A stretch of 64,000 bases of DNA from contig CAZWEM010000004.1 of assembly GCA_964632315.1 (NCBI GenBank), forward strand, positions 64,001 through 128,000. The letters run 5' to 3'. Position numbers and translations under genes: made by a program. The notes under the pieces were generated by a model. The model searched no databases, was not told where the DNA came from, and saw only the letters and a list, made by a program, of their open reading frames with translations. Positions 50,691 through 61,251 of the stretch are shown piece by piece. The stretch's first letter is position 1. Each line of letters opens with the position of its first letter. This stretch comes from an uncultured archaeon. Its GTDB lineage: Archaea > Asgardarchaeota > Lokiarchaeia > Sigyniarchaeales > SOKP01.

Positions 50691-52844
50691 TTGCAAGTTG
50701 AATGTTCAAGTCCAGTATGTAAGATTGATGATGAAGAAATCGAGGAAAGGGAATCGTTATTTGAAGTAAATTTCTGGAGGTTTATCATACCTTCCGTGAT
50801 TATACTGGCTATTTCAATCTTTTTAGAATTTTTTACTAATCAAACTTTATTGAGCCAAATTTTGGCAATTATATCAATATTTCTTTCAAGTTATGACATT
50901 GTTAAAGAAGCAATTGAAGATCTTATCAAGAAAAAGATTACAGCAAATACTTTAATGGTAGTCGCCGCAGTTGCATCCTTTTTTATATTTCATGGACAAG
51001 AGGGCGCAACAGCAATTCTTTTATATGCGATTGCTGAACATTTGGAAGTAATTACTACTGAACGTTCAAGAAATGCAATTAAAGAATTATATGAACTAAC
51101 ACCAGATGAAGCATTACTCAAAGTTAATGATTCATATAAGAATGTGAGTACTGATCAAATAGAGATTGGAGATATCATTGGAATTAAACCAGGAATGAAA
51201 GCACCTTTAGATGGAACTGTAATTGCTGGGCAATCATATTTTGATGAAAGTGCGATTACAGGAGAATCAGTACCAGTTTATAAGGAAGAGGGTGATGAAG
51301 TATATGCTGCAAGCATTAATAGTGATAGTTTTATAGATTTGAAGGTTACTACTGTAAGCTCTAATACTGTAGTGGCTCAAATTGCTGAAAGTATAAAGCT
51401 TGCTCAACAAAATAAATCAGAGGGAGAAAAATTTATCGAAAAATTCGCACGTTATTATACTCCTACTATTCTAATTGCATCAATAATGGTAATGATCATT
51501 CCAACAATAGTATTTCACTTAAATTTTAATGATTGGTTTTATCGAGGACTTGTTCTATTAGTAGTTTCTTGTCCTTGTGCTTTAACTTTATCCACACCGA
51601 TAGCAAATATTACAGCTTTAACAAAATTAGCAAAAGAAGGAATTTTAGTCAAAGGTAATAAGTATATTGAGAAGGTGAATAAAATTAATGCATTTGCTTT
51701 TGATAAAACGGGAACTCTCACTGAAGGAAATTTAAAGGTTTTCGAAGTCCAGTCCTACGGAATCGAAAAAGAGGAAGTTCTTTCTATTGCTGCAAGCCTT
51801 GAATCCCTCTCAGAGCATCCTATAGGAAGAGCAATTGTTAACCAAGTTTCTCAAATGGATATAGATACTTCCCCCGTTCAAAATTTCGAAATTATCAGGG
51901 GTAAGGGAATCAAGGGTGAGATTGACAATAATTTATATTATGTAGGAAGTAAGAGATTCTTTCAAGATTTAGGAATTAAATTACCTAGAGAAGATTTAGA
52001 TGCAATCGAAATTGCTGGAACAATTGCTATATTATTGGGTACAGAAAGTTCCATCTTAGGAATTATTTCGATTAGAGACGTTCTACGGGTTACTGCGCCT
52101 ATATTAATCGATGGTTTGAAAAAAAGAGGTTTTGAAGCTGCACTTATTTCAGGCGATAGTCAAAATGTTTGCAATGAAATTGGCGCTTGTCTTGATATTG
52201 ATAGTGCTCGAGGTGAATTATTACCCAATCAAAAGATTGAGGAAATTGATAATTTAAAATCACAATATAATGAAGTTGCCATGGTGGGAGATGGCATAAA
52301 TGATGCACCTTCTCTGGCTAGATCTGACTTAGGAATCGCTATTGGAGCTTCAGCTACAGACTTAACACTTGAAACTGCCGATGTTATTATTATGAATGAT
52401 GATCTAAAAAAAATTCTGACCTTTATTGATATCTCAACAAATACAAATAAAATTATAAAGCAAAATATTTGGACATCAATAATAGTAAAAGTTTTATTCG
52501 CTGTTTTAACGGTATTTGGATTGATGACTTTGTGGTTAGCAGTAGGTGTTGGTGATATGGGAGTTTCTCTTTTAGTTTTGTTCAATGGTTTGACAATTCT
52601 AAGATATAGGAATAAATTTAAACAATTGAATATTGAAAAAGTTGAATCTAAAGCAAAAATGTTAATTTGTGAGAATTGTAAAACTAAGAGGTTGATCCCT
52701 CAACATCATGGCAGAGATATGCTAAAATCTCAGAATAAGTTAATTTGTTGGAGAAAGATGCTTGATAGCGATGAAATAGAACCATGCGACGAAGAACTTC
52801 CATTATACTGTCCGAATTGTGAAAATAAGTTGCAAGTTGTGTAA
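50691..52844 (+). CDS. P1B-type heavy-metal ATPase (Zn/Cd-type, P1B-2-like)
   Basis: TGES, SCPC, DKTGT, SEHP, GDGINDAP, QN-x7-K and DMG. Confidence 0.93.
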   Translation: MQVECSSPVCKIDDEEIEERESLFEVNFWRFIIPSVIILAISIFLEFFTNQTLLSQILAIISIFLSSYDIVKEAIEDLIKKKITANTLMVVAAVASFFIFHGQEGATAILLYAIAEHLEVITTERSRNAIKELYELTPDEALLKVNDSYKNVSTDQIEIGDIIGIKPGMKAPLDGTVIAGQSYFDESAITGESVPVYKEEGDEVYAASINSDSFIDLKVTTVSSNTVVAQIAESIKLAQQNKSEGEKFIEKFARYYTPTILIASIMVMIIPTIVFHLNFNDWFYRGLVLLVVSCPCALTLSTPIANITALTKLAKEGILVKGNKYIEKVNKINAFAFDKTGTLTEGNLKVFEVQSYGIEKEEVLSIAASLESLSEHPIGRAIVNQVSQMDIDTSPVQNFEIIRGKGIKGEIDNNLYYVGSKRFFQDLGIKLPREDLDAIEIAGTIAILLGTESSILGIISIRDVLRVTAPILIDGLKKRGFEAALISGDSQNVCNEIGACLDIDSARGELLPNQKIEEIDNLKSQYNEVAMVGDGINDAPSLARSDLGIAIGASATDLTLETADVIIMNDDLKKILTFIDISTNTNKIIKQNIWTSIIVKVLFAVLTVFGLMTLWLAVGVGDMGVSLLVLFNGLTILRYRNKFKQLNIEKVESKAKMLICENCKTKRLIPQHHGRDMLKSQNKLICWRKMLDSDEIEPCDEELPLYCPNCENKLQVV

Positions 52845-52868
52845 TGAATTTAAAGTTAGAAAAATCAG

Positions 52869-52953
52869 TGCGGGAAGGGAGATTTGAACTCCCGTACTCC
52901 TACGAGACTGGATTCTGAGTCCAGCGCCTTTGACCAAACTTGGCAATTCCCGC
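52869..52953 (-). tRNA. tRNA-Leu(CAG), no intron, CCA not encoded
   Basis: Reverse complement GCGGGAATTGCCAAGTTTGGTCAAAGGCGCTGGACTCAGAATCCAGTCTCGTAGGAGTACGGGAGTTCAAATCTCCCTTCCCGCA; anticodon arm CTGGA-CTCAGAA-TCCAG; long variable arm. Confidence 0.95.
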
Positions 52954-53087: not shown

Positions 53088-53828
53088 ATGACAGTAGATC
53101 AAAATATTCCAAAAAGAGTGGATCAATCCATCATTGTGTATCAATTTAATGATCAAATCGGTGATTTCGAAGAATTAATTATCGATCCAGATGTGAATTT
53201 AACTGATTTATTAGATGACGATTTCATTCTATTATTCATCGATCCTAAACATTATCGGGTTTGGCTTTGGCATGGTTGGAATACAACAACCCGAATGAAG
53301 TTTATTGCTGCGAAAATGGCTCAACCAATTAGAGACAAGCATGGAATAGCATATAAGATTACTGCTGTTGATCAAGATAATGAAACACGCCCTTTTAATG
53401 TAATGATTGGTAAGGAAGAAGAAATTGATTATGAAAAGGAACAAACTGGTCCAGCCTATGAAGGGAGTGAGGAGGATTTAGAACTATTACAAAGCCTCTC
53501 GAGAGAAAAAATTTTGCTTATTCTTGAGAAAGCAGGGATTCCTGAAGGATATGAAAGGAAAATGGTCATCGTTAAGAATAAAATATTTGGTTATAAAGAA
53601 TATGAGAAGAATTACAGGGGATCAGTAATCATGGAGCCACAACTATTCCCCTTGAAAGAAGAAGTTGAAGATGGAGCATATTTAGCGGAAGATTATGTAC
53701 CTCGAATGCTTTTTTCATATAACAATGTTGTTCTCACGGAATTACTTCAAAAAATAGAAGGAAATCAAGAAAAGGAATCTAATACAGACGTTATTGAAAA
53801 GACATCATTAAAAGAAAACAATGCATGA
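53088..53828 (+). CDS. Asgard gelsolin-domain protein (one gelsolin domain plus C-terminal extra domain, 1DGelX-like)
   Basis: LLDDDFILLFID...VWLWHG..TT.RMKFIA...AVDQDNETRPF gelsolin-repeat pattern. Confidence 0.75.
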   Translation: MTVDQNIPKRVDQSIIVYQFNDQIGDFEELIIDPDVNLTDLLDDDFILLFIDPKHYRVWLWHGWNTTTRMKFIAAKMAQPIRDKHGIAYKITAVDQDNETRPFNVMIGKEEEIDYEKEQTGPAYEGSEEDLELLQSLSREKILLILEKAGIPEGYERKMVIVKNKIFGYKEYEKNYRGSVIMEPQLFPLKEEVEDGAYLAEDYVPRMLFSYNNVVLTELLQKIEGNQEKESNTDVIEKTSLKENNA

Positions 53829-54743: not shown

Positions 54744-56270
54744 TTAATCTTTATTCTTAATCTCTATACCATCCGGTAAAGTTATGCTATCAGTCATTAA
54801 TCCTTCAGCTTTCTTATAATCATCAAAAGTTCTACCTTTAACCATGTTCATGTAATCTTTTAGCCTTTGATCAATTTCTGGATCTAATTTGATGATTGGG
54901 GGTGAATTAAGAATTTCCTCTACTTTTTCTCGTGCCCTCGTGATGATATTTTTAGCTCCTTTTTTATACCAAGTAGATCTTCTTGCCCTATCTGCTAATT
55001 TTGGCATGTATAATTCAGATTTCATGTGATTCCGAGTATGAGCTTCTGCTAAATAATTCACACCTTTTGTTTCGCTCGTAGATACTTTTTTAATCACATC
55101 TAATCCAATGGTATCTTCGTTGACAATTATCCCTTCCATCATTCTCTTAATCATTCCAATTAAATCATCATCTATCACGAGTAATTCTAATGACTCTACT
55201 AAAGTGGCTTCATAGGTACCCGCACAAGTGATATAATTAATCCCTGCTTGAGCAGCTAACATTAACGTTTGTAATCTTTCATAGCCATTTTGCAGGTCTA
55301 GCAATTTAGAATCGGTACCTGCCCCCGGTCCACGAGAGGGAATATTGTAATATCTAGCTAATTGTGCAATACCAGCAGTTATTAATCCCATTTCGATGGA
55401 ACCCATAGCAGAATTACCAGTTCTCATATCTGTGATATGTGAAACAGTTCCAAAAAAGATAGGAGCACCTGGATTGAAAATTTGAGACACAACAACACTA
55501 CCTATTATTTCAGCATTTGTTTGTGTCAATAAACCAGCTAAGGTTACTGGAGCTGAGGCACCTGCCAGAGCTTCAGGTGCGATGATGGTTGGTTGCTTGT
55601 ATTTTGCAAATACCGAAAAACCATTAGTCATTATCTGAGGCAAATGAAGCGGTGAAGTAGGATTCATAAAACCAATTAATCTCGGTCTTTTTATGAGTTC
55701 TTCATCCCCACCCACTATGATAGATGCCATATTCATCATATCTTGGGAAGCTAACCTTCCCAAACAGCCAAGACCATAAGGCTTTTTAGTATTTTTTACC
55801 CATTGATAAATACATTCCGAATGAATAGTTATATATGAAATATCATTCGGCCAGACATCAATATGGGAACAAACTAAATTTTCTAATCGATCAACGATGC
55901 GTATTTGTTGGATAGTATCATCAAGAACAGTCTTTCTTACTCCTTTTTTACTATTCTTATCATAAATCTTCACAGGAGTTCCAATTGTAGCGAATTGACT
56001 GGTTTCAGTATTCACCTCAAAAGAGAATGATCCATCTGGACCATATAGCTTAAAATTACTTGGTACAGTTTTAAGCTTTTCCTTAATTAAAGATTCCGAA
56101 AATTTTACGAAATCAGTATTGTCATCAATTATTGCCCCGTTATCTTTCAGAAGTTGTTTAACTTCATTAGAATCTATTTTGATCCCTACTTCGGTAAGGA
56201 GGGATATGGTGGCTGAATGGATTGCTTCAACTTCATCTTTCGAAAAGACTGCTAATTTTTCTAATTTCAA
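54744..56270 (-). CDS. MttB-superfamily methyltransferase, non-pyrrolysine (paralogue 1)
   Basis: SPL, GASAPVTLAGLL, NAE, PGAP, DMRTG, TDSKLLDLQNGYE; no in-frame amber codon. Confidence 0.9.
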   Translation of the reverse strand: MKLEKLAVFSKDEVEAIHSATISLLTEVGIKIDSNEVKQLLKDNGAIIDDNTDFVKFSESLIKEKLKTVPSNFKLYGPDGSFSFEVNTETSQFATIGTPVKIYDKNSKKGVRKTVLDDTIQQIRIVDRLENLVCSHIDVWPNDISYITIHSECIYQWVKNTKKPYGLGCLGRLASQDMMNMASIIVGGDEELIKRPRLIGFMNPTSPLHLPQIMTNGFSVFAKYKQPTIIAPEALAGASAPVTLAGLLTQTNAEIIGSVVVSQIFNPGAPIFFGTVSHITDMRTGNSAMGSIEMGLITAGIAQLARYYNIPSRGPGAGTDSKLLDLQNGYERLQTLMLAAQAGINYITCAGTYEATLVESLELLVIDDDLIGMIKRMMEGIIVNEDTIGLDVIKKVSTSETKGVNYLAEAHTRNHMKSELYMPKLADRARRSTWYKKGAKNIITRAREKVEEILNSPPIIKLDPEIDQRLKDYMNMVKGRTFDDYKKAEGLMTDSITLPDGIEIKNKD

Positions 56271-56284
56271 TTAAACATCACTCC

Positions 56285-56932
56285 CTACTTATCAGCAAGA
56301 ATTTTTTTTATTTTATCTACTGCTTCAATAGCATCATCAGCATGGGCATCTGCTCCGATTTGATCGGCCCAATCCTCAGAAGTAGGAGCACCTCCGACAA
56401 TGACTTTATATTTATCTCGTAAACCTCGCTTTTTCAGCTCTTCTATTACTTCTTTCTGAAAATCCATAGACATCGTTAAAAGCGATGATAAGCCAATGAC
56501 ATCAGCACCTACTTCCTCTGCCTTAGATATGAATTGATCAGCGGTTACTTCTACTCCTAAGTTATATACCTCAAATCCGTTTGAAAACAAGAATGATCCT
56601 ACAAGATCCTTACCAATGCTATGCACATCACTTTCCACCGTCCCTATTACAACTTTGCCTTGTGATTCTTTCTTTTCTCCAGCTGCTCGAATAGCAGGGT
56701 CTAAAACATTGTCAATAGCACCTTTCACCGTTTCAGCGGATCCAATAAGTTCGGGGAGAAATATTTCCTCTTCTTCAAATTGATCACCAATAAATTTCAT
56801 AATTTCTCCTATGATTTTAAGAAGCTCTGATGCTGTCGCTTCTTTATTAGTCAAAATTGTCTTACAATACTCAATCAATCCTTCTGTGTCCCATTCTGAA
56901 ACCAGATCTTTGATTTTTTCCTTAATATTCAA
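56285..56932 (-). CDS. Methyltransferase cognate corrinoid protein
   Basis: FLPEL cap domain, DVHSIGKDLV (DxHxxG), SSLLT, VGGAP. Confidence 0.92.
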   Translation of the reverse strand: MNIKEKIKDLVSEWDTEGLIEYCKTILTNKEATASELLKIIGEIMKFIGDQFEEEEIFLPELIGSAETVKGAIDNVLDPAIRAAGEKKESQGKVVIGTVESDVHSIGKDLVGSFLFSNGFEVYNLGVEVTADQFISKAEEVGADVIGLSSLLTMSMDFQKEVIEELKKRGLRDKYKVIVGGAPTSEDWADQIGADAHADDAIEAVDKIKKILADK

Positions 56933-56980
56933 TTTTTTTCCCGCTCAAATATAATAGATTTTTTGATTTAAGATAAGTTC

Positions 56981-57004
56981 TTTTCAAAAAAAACTTTTTG
57001 AAAA
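56981..57004. promoter_or_regulatory. Inverted repeat in the divergent promoter
   Basis: TTTTCAAAAA-AAAC-TTTTTGAAAA, perfect 10-bp arms but low complexity. Confidence 0.35.
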
Positions 57005-57064
57005 ACCTTATTTTATTATCATAAATTATTAAGCTCAAAATCTTTATTCCTAGATTGAATTCTC

Positions 57065-58573
57065 ATGAAGATGAATAAAATTGAAGTATTAGAAAAAGAT
57101 GAGATAGAATTAATTCATAATAAAACTTTAGAATTATTAGAAAAGCTTGGAGTGAAAGTGGAATCGGAAGAAGCACGTAAACTACTTAAGAATAGTGGAG
57201 CTATTGTCAATGAAAGAACTCAAAATGTGAAATTTCCAGCGGATTTAGTATTAGAGCAGTTAAAAAAGGTTCCAGATCATTTCACACTATGGGGCACTGA
57301 TAAATCCTTTAATTTTGAAGTGAATACTAAAACGGTGAATTTTGCGACAGTCGGGACACCAGTAAAAATTTATGATCCAACAAAGAAGAAAGGAATAAGA
57401 AAGACAAAATTAGCAGATACTATCAACCAGATTAGAATTGTAGATTCATCAAAAAACATAATGTGTTCCCACGTGGATGTTTGGCCTAATGATGTTCCCT
57501 ATTTAGAGTTACATTATCATGCTATTAAAGCTTGGGCTACTCATAGTAAAAAGCCTTATGGTTTAGGTTGTTTAGGTCGCGTTGCAAGCCAAGATATGAT
57601 GGATCTTACTTCAACCATCGTTGGAGGTCATGAAGAACTGGTGAGATTTCCGCGTTTAATTGGATTTTTCAATCCAGTAAGCCCTCTAATTTTAAACAAA
57701 CTCCAGCTCAATGGATTATTTATCTTTGCGAAAAATAAGCAACCGACCATCATCGCTCCTGCGGCAAGTGCAGGTTCGACCGCTCCAGTCACGCTAGCAG
57801 GATTATTGATTCAATCTAATATGGAAACTTTGTCTTCAATAACTTTAACTCAATTAATAAATCCTGGATGTCCCGTGTTCTATTCTACCATGAATGCTCC
57901 AATGGATCCCCCTACTGGGAATGTAGCTTGGGGTTCAATCGAGACAGGGTTAATAACCATTGGAGCCGCACAAATGGGACGTTTTTATAATATTCCCTCA
58001 AGAGGACCAGGATTAGTTACTGAATCAAAATGTTTTGATATTCAAAATGGATTTGAGAGGCTAATGACTCTTTTTTGCTCTGCTAATGCAGGCATTAATT
58101 ACATAACTTGTGCCGGCACCTATGAGTCTTCACTTGCTGAAGCGTTGGAATTATTGGTCATAGATGATGAGTTAATTGATATAGTGAAAAGAGGTTTTAA
58201 TGGCATACGAGTCGATGACGAAAGTATCGCGGTTGATCAGATCTCCCGAGTTGCTACTGAAGGAAAGAATTATCTCATGTTAAAACATACGGTAAAAAAT
58301 ACCCGAAAAGAGTTATTCGTACCAAAATTGGTAGATCGTGATAGAAGAGGAATCTGGCAAAGAAATGGGGCAAAAGACATCATCACGAGGGCACGAGAAA
58401 AAGTGGATGAAATTCTTAAAACGCAAAAGGGTCTTGGAATTTCGCAAGAAATAGAAGGAAAATTACAAGAGATTTATAAAAAGATTTCCTCTCGCACCTA
58501 TGATGATTTTAGAAAGGCAGAAGGAATGGATGATGATTCTCAACCAAAAGAATTACCTCAATTGGAGGATTAA
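57065..58573 (+). CDS. MttB-superfamily methyltransferase, non-pyrrolysine (paralogue 2)
   Basis: SPL, GSTAPVTLAGLL, PGCP, TESKCFDIQNGFE; no in-frame amber codon. Confidence 0.9.
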   Translation: MKMNKIEVLEKDEIELIHNKTLELLEKLGVKVESEEARKLLKNSGAIVNERTQNVKFPADLVLEQLKKVPDHFTLWGTDKSFNFEVNTKTVNFATVGTPVKIYDPTKKKGIRKTKLADTINQIRIVDSSKNIMCSHVDVWPNDVPYLELHYHAIKAWATHSKKPYGLGCLGRVASQDMMDLTSTIVGGHEELVRFPRLIGFFNPVSPLILNKLQLNGLFIFAKNKQPTIIAPAASAGSTAPVTLAGLLIQSNMETLSSITLTQLINPGCPVFYSTMNAPMDPPTGNVAWGSIETGLITIGAAQMGRFYNIPSRGPGLVTESKCFDIQNGFERLMTLFCSANAGINYITCAGTYESSLAEALELLVIDDELIDIVKRGFNGIRVDDESIAVDQISRVATEGKNYLMLKHTVKNTRKELFVPKLVDRDRRGIWQRNGAKDIITRAREKVDEILKTQKGLGISQEIEGKLQEIYKKISSRTYDDFRKAEGMDDDSQPKELPQLED

Positions 58574-58576
58574 ACC

Positions 58577-59860
58577 GTGGCTGAAGAAAAGAGAAAAAAA
58601 ACAGCAGATCAAGTAAATAAAGAATTAAGGGATAGATGGGATAAATTACACTTTGATACTCAACAAGGAAGAGCTGGAGAAGATCCTTATCCCACAGCTA
58701 CAGGAAGTTTAAGAATTCCTTTGTATGCGACTAAATCATATGCATACTCCACATTAGATGAGTTATTAAAAAACCACTATAATTATTCTAGAACTGAAAA
58801 CCCAACTTTATATGCTCTTGATCAAAAATTAGCTACCCTTCATGGAGGAGAAGCGGCGCTGTCAGTTGCATCTGGAATGTCAGCGGTCCATTTAGCGCTT
58901 TCAAGTATTATCCAAACTCGCGTTGAAAGAAAAAGGGAGAAAAAGATTAGAGAGTTACTTCCGCAAAATGATCCAGAAAAGATTCCAAATGTTCTGATTC
59001 ATAACAATCAATATACTGGAGTTTATCGGTTACTTACCAAAATATATCCTCAAACTGGAGTTATGGCTAAAATTATCGATATGAGAAATTTGGATGAGGT
59101 CAAAAATGCAATAGATATTAATACAAGAGGAATGTTTATTGAAACACCCTCAAATCCAAACTTAGATGTATTAGATATAAAATCATGTACTGATATAATT
59201 CATGAAGCGGGAGGAAAATGTATTGTAGATAACACATTCGCATCACCCGCTTTACAAAAACCATTAAATTTAGGAGTGGATTTGGTTGTAGAAAGCTTGA
59301 CGAAATTTATTAATGGTCATGGAGATACTCTAGGAGGAGCCATTATCGGGCCTAAAAATGAATTACAAAACATACGTTATTTTTGGTTAGAAACGTTTGG
59401 TCCTGTAATGCATCCCTTTAGTGCATGGTTGATTTTAAGGGGTTGCCGTACACTTAGCATGAGGATGGAACGCCATTGTTCAAATGCCAAAAAGATTGCG
59501 CAATTCTTAGAAAAGCATCCTAAAATAGAGAAAGTAATTTATCCCGGATTAAAATCACATCCAAATCATGAAATCGCAAAAAAACAGATGAAAGATTTCG
59601 GGGGAATGATCGGATTCGAACTGAAAACCGTTGAAGCATGCTATAAATTCATAAACTCTTTAAAATTGATTAAAGTAGGAGTTTCATTGGGAGACACGAC
59701 TTCTTTAATAGAATATACTTCCGTTATGACGGGGATTGATTTGGCTTCTTGGGAAAAGAGGAGGATGAGAATGTCAGACACGCATTTTCGTTTTTCTGTC
59801 GGTTTAGAGGATCCAGAGGACTTAATTAACGATTTAGCACACGCATTAGAAAAAATATAA
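58577..59860 (+). CDS. Cys/Met-metabolism PLP enzyme (methionine gamma-lyase/cystathionine lyase family)
   Basis: YSRTENPT, SGMSA, ETPSNP, DNTFASP, SLTKFINGHGD, SLG, RFSVGLE. Confidence 0.9.
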   Translation: MAEEKRKKTADQVNKELRDRWDKLHFDTQQGRAGEDPYPTATGSLRIPLYATKSYAYSTLDELLKNHYNYSRTENPTLYALDQKLATLHGGEAALSVASGMSAVHLALSSIIQTRVERKREKKIRELLPQNDPEKIPNVLIHNNQYTGVYRLLTKIYPQTGVMAKIIDMRNLDEVKNAIDINTRGMFIETPSNPNLDVLDIKSCTDIIHEAGGKCIVDNTFASPALQKPLNLGVDLVVESLTKFINGHGDTLGGAIIGPKNELQNIRYFWLETFGPVMHPFSAWLILRGCRTLSMRMERHCSNAKKIAQFLEKHPKIEKVIYPGLKSHPNHEIAKKQMKDFGGMIGFELKTVEACYKFINSLKLIKVGVSLGDTTSLIEYTSVMTGIDLASWEKRRMRMSDTHFRFSVGLEDPEDLINDLAHALEKI

Positions 59861-59877: not shown

Positions 59878-61251
59878 TTAAGTTGTTTTTACTTTATCCA
59901 TTTTTTCTTGATGGAGTTCACTGAGTTTAATCTTCATCCCTATGACTTTTTTCTTAGTGAATGGGAAGAAATATAGACAGATTAACGAAATTCCCAAAGC
60001 CATACCGGGAACTATTACAAAAAGGAAACGTAACCCAAAATCTACATCAACATTCGGATTTGGAATATATTCTTCCCAGCCTGTTTGAATGAAGACTAAA
60101 CTCACTACAGATATAGAAAGAACCATGGATAATCGCATGAAGAAGTTGGCGATACCAAAAAAGATGCCCTCTCGTCGAACTCCCGTTTTTAACTCGTCAT
60201 CATCTATCACATCTGCAACAATGTACCATATAAAGTAAAGCATCCCTCCGAAACCGATTCCCATAAAAATTACGATGATAATTCCTTCCATGTAAGAAGA
60301 AATGAATAACATTGGTATCGAAGCAATAAAATATAAAATTATGGAAATACCATATCCGATCCTACTACCAAGCTTGACATCTAAACCTTTCCATACATAC
60401 ATGAAGGCTATGCCCACAATGTATAGAAGTCCCATTAAAATGGAGGTTTCAAACGCAGTTGTAGTTCCTAATATTCTCCTTGAAAATAAAGGTACGATTG
60501 TAGCTAATAATAGAAGAATGAACTCATACAAAAAGAACATAATAATATAAAGAACAAAACCTAAGTTTTTAAACGCATATTTTATTCCTTGGAACAGTGA
60601 GAAATGTTGCTGGTAGTCAAGCGTGAATTCCTCTCGTTCTTTAGCTCCCCATTTTAAGAAAATTATCAGTGAAACCCCAACTATAATTGAAGTTACAATA
60701 CCGTTCATTAAATACCCGTCTCGAGTGCTAGTATCTCCGATAAAAATTCCGGGTATGATTGCCGCTAAGATCAATCCAACAGCGGCGAAAATCTGTCGTA
60801 TTGTATTCACTTGCGTTCGCTCTTCAACAGAAGTGTAAAGTTCTGGGAAAAGAGAGTCCGTAGGAAGCGCAATGAGAGTATAAGCGGTATCATAAAGTAA
60901 TAACATCATTAAAAGGTAAAAGAATTGGGACATTTGACCTGCTAAAGGAGGAAGCCAAATTAAGATTTCTAAAGCCAATACAGGAAGGAAACCAATCATA
61001 ATGTATATTCGGCGACGACCATATCTGCTATGAGTCCTATCTGAGAGATACCCAATGAGAGGATCATTAAAGGCGTTCCAGATTGTCCAGATAATGTATG
61101 CGGTCCATATTAGATTCATTGCTAATCCCACAGCGGAAAAGTAGAATGTAAATACCCAGAGATTAAACGCAGAGTTGATGAACCATTCAACACCATTTCC
61201 AAGCGAGAAGCTTACTTTCTGACCTAAACTAAATCTTTGACTCATGATCAT
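59878..61251 (-). CDS. GPH (MelB-like) family MFS transporter
   Basis: NDPLIGYLSDRTHSRYGRRR and DDDELKTGVRREG motifs. Confidence 0.9.
   Translation of the reverse strand: MIMSQRFSLGQKVSFSLGNGVEWFINSAFNLWVFTFYFSAVGLAMNLIWTAYIIWTIWNAFNDPLIGYLSDRTHSRYGRRRIYIMIGFLPVLALEILIWLPPLAGQMSQFFYLLMMLLLYDTAYTLIALPTDSLFPELYTSVEERTQVNTIRQIFAAVGLILAAIIPGIFIGDTSTRDGYLMNGIVTSIIVGVSLIIFLKWGAKEREEFTLDYQQHFSLFQGIKYAFKNLGFVLYIIMFFLYEFILLLLATIVPLFSRRILGTTTAFETSILMGLLYIVGIAFMYVWKGLDVKLGSRIGYGISIILYFIASIPMLFISSYMEGIIIVIFMGIGFGGMLYFIWYIVADVIDDDELKTGVRREGIFFGIANFFMRLSMVLSISVVSLVFIQTGWEEYIPNPNVDVDFGLRFLFVIVPGMALGISLICLYFFPFTKKKVIGMKIKLSELHQEKMDKVKTT

Follow-up and report, generated by a model that had tools for sequence, protein, structure and literature searches.

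Gene organization of the locus

The subject of this analysis is a gene cassette in a 64,000-nt stretch of contig CAZWEM010000004.1 (the window) from a Loki-type Asgard archaeon (Promethearchaeota). The cassette encodes two MttB-superfamily methyltransferases, a corrinoid protein, a pyridoxal 5′-phosphate (PLP) enzyme of the Cys/Met-metabolism family, and a transporter (Table 1). The region is AT-rich (~31% G+C), and the host genome amounts to 4.45 Mb on 119 contigs (99.5% complete, 8.6% contamination). An initial annotation made from the sequence had described two divergent gene pairs, corrinoid protein–MttB1 and MttB2–lyase. Gene arrangement, strands, and coordinates were all confirmed by the open reading frames (ORFs), including the 3-nt gap between the MttB2 stop codon and the GTG start codon of the PLP gene. 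Family-level Pfam and NCBIfam assignments were unambiguous for the cassette proteins, and none of them reached an equivalog-level cut-off. An Rfam scan of the cassette revealed no riboswitch or other element at or above threshold.

Table 1 Features of the cassette and a neighboring tRNA gene in the window
Feature	Description	Position	Strand	Evidence
MttB1	non-pyrrolysine MttB-superfamily methyltransferase, 508 aa	54744-56270	-	PF06253 1.6e-102
Corrinoid protein	B12-binding protein, 215 aa, 14 nt upstream of MttB1	56285-56932	-	PF02310 + PF02607
Divergent intergenic/promoter region	132 nt, with A/T-tract palindrome	56933-57064	.	sequence inspection
MttB2	second non-pyrrolysine MttB paralogue, 502 aa, optional cassette member	57065-58573	+	PF06253 3.4e-94
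PLP enzyme	Cys/Met-metabolism PLP enzyme, 427 aa, 25-aa insertion	58577-59860	+	PF01053 4e-117
Transporter	MFS_2/GPH family, 457 aa, convergent, presumed importer	59878-61251	-	PF13347 3.5e-56
tRNA-Leu(CAG)	between P1B-type ATPase gene (50691-52844) and gelsolin-like ORF	52868-52953	-	

Conserved linkage and co-inheritance

The PLP gene adjoins MttB2 in 43 of the 62 loci that were retrieved by searching with MttB2, and in seven of the 43 the order is inverted (PLP gene then MttB2). The corrinoid gene lies next to MttB1 in 40 related loci, and the transporter gene adjoins either the PLP gene or MttB2 in 35, irrespective of gene order. ORF clustering of 46 cassette loci left only five families common to distant lineages (MttB, PLP enzyme, corrinoid protein, and MFS_2). 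In six genomes from three genera (L063/L064, L073-L076), an MttB1-type protein, the corrinoid protein, the PLP enzyme, and the MFS_2 transporter are present without MttB2, and the single MttB of these genomes bears the MttB1 signature described below. Thus, the conserved core consists of four genes, those for MttB1, the corrinoid protein, the PLP enzyme, and the transporter, and MttB2 is optional. The genomic linkage of the MttB genes to a lyase gene that the initial annotation had noted, with neighborhood conservation as the check, is therefore real and conserved: it persists through two gene orders and in cassettes devoid of MttB2. However, the PLP enzyme has its essential partner in MttB1 and the corrinoid protein and not in MttB2, which is a dispensable member, and the convergent MFS_2 transporter has to be added to the unit.

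Among the genomes sampled from the same genus, the PLP enzyme and MttB2 were both present in 16 and both absent from 7, and 2 carried the four-gene form. Five of the seven genomes without the cassette are 91–100% complete, and none of the seven gave a match to the Cys/Met PLP family at E ≤ 1e-20, so the PLP enzyme is not a housekeeping protein. Orthologue-level PLP matches were concentrated in the host's own family (as grouped in the genome collection) with three sporadic cases elsewhere; the labels 'Thor/Hermod/Hod' attached to some records are not to be read as a wide phyletic spread. One record titled 'Candidatus Nanopelagicaceae bacterium' (L006, DATKTW010000123.1) contains a full Asgard cassette with ~80% protein identity and is probably mis-binned or mislabelled.

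A mere co-location of the genes with no biochemical coupling is improbable. It would be in keeping with R313 of the MttB proteins, an arginine retained as in all carboxylate-betaine enzymes, and with the observation that unrelated genes, namely those for a gelsolin-like protein and a DedA/VTT protein, are likewise syntenic in closer relatives. In contrast, the cassette genes have stayed adjacent where the gene order is inverted and where MttB2 has been lost, the PLP clade is confined to the cassette context, and the genes have been gained and lost together. Moreover, the aromatic pair Y97/F356 of the glycine betaine methyltransferase MtgB is replaced by I/V and T/S.

The gelsolin-like and DedA/VTT genes were rejected as additional conserved partners because they are syntenic in closer relatives only; the other flanking families vary by lineage. 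The gelsolin-like ORF (53088-53828, plus strand, 246 aa) has no Pfam match and showed weak matches (E 0.007-0.05) to the Lokiarchaeota gelsolin-domain proteins 7c2h, 7whg, and 7c2f; its synteny with the cassette extends over 26 loci, but it is probably unrelated to the cassette.

MttB1 and MttB2 are non-pyrrolysine paralogues with a divergent substrate pocket

MttB1 and MttB2 matched PF06253 with 343.6 and 316.1 bits, respectively (cut-off 25), spanning profile positions 28–493, which places both in the MttB superfamily; they share 56% identity over 495 residues. With TIGR02369, the model for the pyrrolysine-containing trimethylamine methyltransferase MttB, they scored 399 and 377 bits, below the cut-off of 525. 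All motifs quoted in the initial annotation (FATxGTPVKIYD, CSHxDVWPND, KKPYGLGCLGR, and the pairs GPGAGTDSK/GPGLVTESK and SHITDMRTG/NAPMDPPTG) are present, and its non-pyrrolysine assignment and placement of the pyrrolysine-equivalent site were correct: in alignments with Methanosarcina barkeri MttB (7xcl), the pyrrolysine residue (X) falls opposite G316 in MttB1 and V316 in MttB2, and neither gene contains an in-frame stop codon (UAG). Matches to the Rfam model PYLIS_3 were found inside both mttB genes (55220-55317, minus strand, 32 bits; 58016-58115, plus strand, 29 bits; gathering score 38), and this model partly scores conserved coding sequence. Pyrrolysine recoding of either gene was rejected because there is no in-frame stop and the PYLIS_3 matches reflect coding homology only. 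In another genome (Loki_b31), the gene of an MttB paralogue (L043:8001-9476) is interrupted by a single in-frame stop codon in place of Trp140, which is invariant elsewhere; it reflects a pseudogene or a sequencing error and does not fall at a pyrrolysine codon position.

An AlphaFold2 model of MttB1 (predicted local distance difference test score, pLDDT, 86.6) gave a TIM barrel with eight barrel strands, and a Foldseek search with this model yielded template modeling (TM) scores of 0.86–0.92 to 9yce, 2qne, and 7xcl at 30% identity. In MtgB, glycine betaine is bound by Y97 and F356 through cation–π interactions and by R312 and H348 at the carboxylate (PMC13080624). Only R312 of these four is retained, as R313 in both MttB1 and MttB2. 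Y97 corresponds to I/V96 and F356 to T/S356 in MttB1/MttB2, and H348 has no counterpart, falling into an alignment gap beside T348-C349. Five residues that are absent from MtgB and MttB are invariant across these Asgard paralogues (D138, W140, H150, C349, and E354), and Y353 is nearly so. All six lie at the C-terminal ends of barrel strands or beyond them, where, to judge from the model, they may form an alternative onium-binding site.

The paralogues were compared in an alignment of 44 MttB1 and 44 MttB2 orthologues, in which a column was taken as discriminating when it was ≥90% conserved within each group and differed between the groups. Ten of the 15 columns so identified (96, 233, 274, 276, 280, 282, 287, 320, 355, and 356) lie in loops after strands β1, β5, β6, β7, and β8 of the modeled barrel and include the equivalents of MtgB Y97 and F356. 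The MttB1 clade is marked by I96, E233, G274, V276, T280, and M282 and the MttB2 clade by V96, A233, S274, M276, M280, P282, S355, and S356, E233 after β5 being an extra invariant acidic residue of MttB1 that is Ala in MttB2. This divergence in the pocket loops at the top of the modeled barrel suggests that MttB1 and MttB2 most likely bind different, related substrates. A zinc site formed by C134, H136, C169, and C349, which would point to thioether or thiol chemistry, was considered and dropped because several cassette members have Ala in place of C134 and Val or Ala in place of C169. As far as can be read from their sequences, the MttB proteins give nothing to tell a sulfonium from an ammonium substrate.

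The two paralogues could also form a heterodimer, or they could shuttle methyl groups from one small molecule to another as the first (MT1) and second (MT2) methyltransferase. In the dimeric proteins MtgB and MttB, each pocket is completed by the C-terminal arm of the partner subunit (PMC13080624), and the cassette itself encodes no MT2. Both variants are nevertheless very improbable, given that MttB1 is the only MttB of the cassette in six genomes and that MtrH and URO-D candidates for the MT2 role are encoded elsewhere in the genome. In addition, no MttB-family enzyme acting as MT2 is known.

The PLP enzyme belongs to a cassette-bound clade

With 391 bits for PF01053 (cut-off 27), the PLP enzyme is a member of the Cys/Met-metabolism PLP family. 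The Schiff-base lysine K243, in the S-x-T-K motif SLTKF, is invariant among 21 orthologues, and D218, Y146, R405, and Y68/R72 are likewise intact and invariant among orthologues. The best relatives in the Protein Data Bank were methionine γ-lyases (Citrobacter freundii 2RFV, E 6e-93), closely followed by cystathionine γ-synthases and γ-lyases. A YGC motif and a K-D pair have been used as filters for true methionine γ-lyases (PMC11568061). The cassette enzyme has Y146-T-G in place of YGC (Cys116 in Pseudomonas putida), E272-T273 in place of K240-D241 (P. putida), and YTSVMTG in place of HPASMTH. Y146 and E272 are invariant among the orthologues, T147 and G148 nearly so, and T273 was read from the window's protein only. 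In agreement, the methionine γ-lyase model TIGR01328 gave 351 bits at a cut-off of 550. A canonical methionine γ-lyase was therefore rejected, since both signatures failed and TIGR01328 stayed below its cut-off; the label 'methionine γ-lyase' is a best-hit annotation only. The route via methionine and methanethiol that the initial annotation had derived from the identity of the lyase is thus not implied by the sequence of the enzyme.

A Lys/Arg-rich insertion of ~25 residues (about residues 113–138) precedes Y146 and was found in 47 of 47 orthologues. More than 120 database clusters of orthologues (≥68% identity) are all from Asgard archaea and carry generic or best-hit names. The enzyme is the sole PF01053-family member in the 99.5%-complete host genome. 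Its nearest Asgard paralogues (39–47% identity) have no MttB, corrinoid, or MFS_2 neighbors, and two of them (372 and 389 aa) are too short for the 25-aa insertion. By sequence and gene context, the PLP enzyme thus represents a distinct, cassette-bound clade. Structure prediction contributed little: the AlphaFold2 model, built on a shallow orthologue alignment, had a pLDDT of 60.5 and was left unused, and ESM Atlas look-alikes were uninformative, with γ-synthase, γ-lyase, β-lyase, and sulfhydrylase clusters at equal score.

Corrinoid protein, transporter, and divergent promoter region

The 215-aa protein combines a B12-binding domain, with the DxHxxG (DVHSIG), SxL (SSLLT), and GG (GGA) motifs of corrinoid proteins, and an N-terminal helical cap (PF02310 plus PF02607) and is the cognate corrinoid protein of the cassette. 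Its top NCBIfam models were MtgC and MtbC, both below cut-off. TIGR02370 gave 166 bits at a cut-off of 215. The transporter matched PF13347 with 191 bits (cut-off 27) and TIGR00792 with 151 bits (cut-off 231). To judge from the sequences, the enzymes of the cassette look functional: the PLP lysine and carboxylate arginine, the DxHxxG motif, and the equivalent of MtgB R312 are all retained.

The divergent promoter region contains a perfect A/T-tract palindrome, TTTTCAAAAA-AAAC-TTTTTGAAAA, at 56981-57004. In relatives it reads TGAAAAA-AAAG-TTTTTCA, with G and C exchanged symmetrically in the two arms. Of the orthologous intergenic regions (34, together 5.0 kb), 16 contained the motif AAAAA[GC]TTT[TA]T[CG], versus 58 matches in the whole 4.45-Mb genome, both strands counted. 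The palindrome may serve as an operator or as a bidirectional core promoter. A role as a regulon motif was rejected, as the palindrome was not found beside the other MttB, MtrH, RamA, or corrinoid genes.

Methyl-transfer machinery elsewhere in the genome

Of a three-component system (MT1, corrinoid protein, and MT2, with an activase), the cassette encodes only two MT1 and the corrinoid protein. Neither the cassette nor its conserved flanks contain an MT2 or a RamA-type activase. Without an MT2 of its own, the cassette would have to rely on one acting in trans to take over the methyl group. The genome as a whole has seven MttB-family genes, three MtrH homologues, and one RamA-type activase; the MtrH homologues, URO-D genes, and the single RamA gene are located on other contigs. 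MetE was looked for in the host genome and is absent. An operon on a further contig (C13:37993-40981; L071:5993-8981) encodes a corrinoid protein, a homocysteine S-methyltransferase (PF02574), and a distant MttB paralogue with 29% identity to MttB1. The homocysteine S-methyltransferase domain is the only one in the genome and sits between the MttB paralogue and the corrinoid gene. By analogy, this operon looks like a split, MttB-fed methionine synthase of the MtgBCDE type (PMC12478193).

The inventory bears on an alternative in which methyl-corrinoid from MttB1/2 feeds methionine synthesis and the PLP enzyme supplies or removes homocysteine. The lack of MetE, the location of the sole homocysteine S-methyltransferase between an MttB paralogue and a corrinoid protein, and the resemblance of this set to the MtgBCDE coupling of betaine demethylation to methionine synthesis (PMC12478193) all fit such a role, as does the lack of any trans-sulfuration-family enzyme besides the PLP enzyme in the genome. 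However, complete sister genomes have neither the cassette nor such a PLP enzyme, so the cassette is not needed for methionine supply. Moreover, a separate MttB and corrinoid protein are encoded alongside the homocysteine methyltransferase on another contig, and a cassette with an importer dedicated to it is more in line with catabolism. We consider this alternative unlikely.

Two further MttB paralogues (C2:42468-45037 and C17:52678-55285; L068 and L070) each adjoin a URO-D-family gene (MtaA/CdmB-type methyltransferase). A GH3 glycosidase gene and genes for two MFS_2 transporters 38% identical to the cassette transporter are also present at the C2 locus.

Proposed pathway and substrate

We propose that the cassette is an accessory catabolic unit for an imported methylated onium compound with an amino-acid moiety, in which demethylation would precede PLP-dependent cleavage of the amino-acid-like product; for this proposal as a whole we see about equal chances of being right or wrong. 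With this set of genes, the host probably feeds on a methylated amino-acid-like compound. The MFS_2 transporter would take up the compound, and MttB1 would move one methyl group to the Co(I) form of the corrinoid protein, MttB2, where present, acting on a related second substrate. Methyl-corrinoid would be unloaded by an MtrH-type MT2 encoded elsewhere, toward the C1 carrier of the Wood–Ljungdahl pathway, and the single RamA-type activase would keep the corrinoid protein active. The PLP enzyme would then cleave the demethylated product, which would need a free α-amino group, by γ- or β-elimination to a 2-oxoacid, ammonia, and a leaving group. The genes of the cassette, their linkage and joint inheritance, the intact catalytic residues, and the divergent pockets are observations, whereas we infer the order and direction of these steps, the substrate class, and the recourse to an MT2 in trans.

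PLP chemistry requires a primary α-amine. Because of this requirement, and because one MttB suffices in six genomes, the α-nitrogen cannot be the onium center in this scheme, which leads to an amino acid with a sulfonium or ammonium group in the side chain. S-Methylmethionine is the only common natural amino acid with a side-chain onium group that we know of. It, or a close analogue (a γ-onium 2-aminobutyrate), would be the best concrete candidate, in agreement with the initial annotation, which had listed S-methylmethionine; the assignment is tentative and considerably more likely to be wrong than right. With S-methylmethionine, the demethylated product would be methionine, possibly homocysteine after a second demethylation, which would be cleaved to 2-oxobutyrate. 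Somewhat more doubtful still is the full version of this idea, in which MttB1 would be the first sulfonium-specific MttB member (S-methylmethionine:corrinoid methyltransferase), the PLP enzyme a new γ-lyase cleaving its product, and MttB2 an extension to a second onium compound or the second methyl group.

Several points weigh against the proposed pathway and its sulfonium version. To our knowledge, no sulfonium substrate has been described for any MttB-family enzyme, and the literature searched contained no report of a corrinoid route for S-methylmethionine. Since the signatures of methionine γ-lyase are absent, methionine is not a predicted substrate of the PLP enzyme. The cassette transporter says little about the substrate, because the genome encodes more than 20 GPH/MFS_2 transporters and members of this family usually carry glycosides, not amino acids. 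No MT2 is encoded within the cassette, and the role of MttB2 is not accounted for by the pathway. S-Methylmethionine is mainly a plant metabolite, yet some cassette-bearing metagenome-assembled genomes are perhaps of deep-sea origin, as judged from their isolate names.

The PLP enzyme could instead act first and make or release an acidic onium compound for MttB1, for instance through elimination of an onium group from a γ-substituted 2-aminobutyrate. The conserved linkage fits this order equally well, and the segment Y146-x-G-x-Y-R151 seems similar to that of cystathionine γ-synthase/lyase enzymes handling bulky γ-substituents, which would also favor this order. A precedent for an accessory enzyme that makes the true substrate is the kinase MthK, whose product phosphocholine is used by MthB (PMC12155760). 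Yet no natural conjugate of this kind could be named, and released trimethylamine would require a pyrrolysine-containing MttB, which MttB1 and MttB2 are not. This order of steps is as unlikely as the role in methionine synthesis considered above.

Either way, a PLP partner co-inherited with the methyltransferase constrains the substrate, which must yield, or derive from, an α-amino acid, and the substrate question is therefore testable with a short list of compounds. The MttB superfamily is very large. If the substrate is indeed a sulfonium amino acid, MttB-family chemistry would extend from nitrogen to sulfur, and Asgard methylotrophy would be linked to the organic sulfur cycle in sediments. 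In the case of S-methylmethionine, Asgard archaea would possess a B12-dependent route from the plant or algal compound to a methyl-C1 carrier and 2-oxobutyrate.

Comparison with known systems

Asgard MttB homologues have so far been labelled 'uncharacterised quaternary-amine methyltransferases' (PMC11291895), and the six substrates known for the MttB superfamily are all quaternary amines (PMC12155760). Given the Cys/Met-type PLP partner, either the substrate or the product of the cassette should have a free α-amino group, which is absent from all six. As the lyase linkage is conserved and no characterized MttB-family system has such a partner, the initial suggestion of an undescribed specificity or pathway is likely to be right.

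Among the closest characterized relatives of MttB1 is MtgB of the MtgB/MtgC(/MtgA) system from Desulfitobacterium hafniense (2QNE, 9YCE), which has the same fold and family (30% identity, TM 0.86–0.92). Both systems combine a non-pyrrolysine MT1 with a small DxHxxG corrinoid protein and conserve the carboxylate arginine R312. They differ in that the cation–π residues Y97/F356 are I/V96 and T/S356 in the Asgard proteins, which also have no counterpart of H348, and in that the Asgard cassette has no MT2 and includes an integral lyase-type PLP enzyme and an MFS_2 importer. Compared with the methionine γ-lyases from C. freundii (2RFV) and P. putida (1GC0), the cassette PLP enzyme retains the PLP lysine, the Asp and Tyr at the PLP ring, the carboxylate arginine, and the VSLGD segment, whereas it has YTG and E-T (versus YGC and K239-D240), YTSVMTG, and the 25-residue insertion before the Tyr. 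A paper joining MttB or Asgard archaea with methionine γ-lyase was not found in the literature searched.

One corrinoid protein serving several MttB paralogues is ordinary, as in Eubacterium limosum MtqC and Ruegeria pomeroyi MtgC (PMC12155760, PMC12478193), the former being shared by MtpB, MtcB, and MtyB, much as in the cassette. The choline cluster MthB/MthC/MthA/MthK of E. limosum offers a further likeness, as the accessory kinase MthK is encoded with the MttB protein and needed for the pathway (PMC12155760). In the Asgard cassette, in contrast, the accessory enzyme is of the Cys/Met PLP family, and a dedicated, co-inherited enzyme of this kind as an integral part of an MttB system is undescribed in the literature searched. 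The MtgBCDE system of R. pomeroyi (PMC12478193) resembles the cassette as a corrinoid-centered modular system that ties MttB-family methyl donors to sulfur amino-acid metabolism; there the link includes a homocysteine methyltransferase and a pterin module, both missing from the Asgard cassette, in which the PLP enzyme is the partner of the sulfur-amino-acid type.

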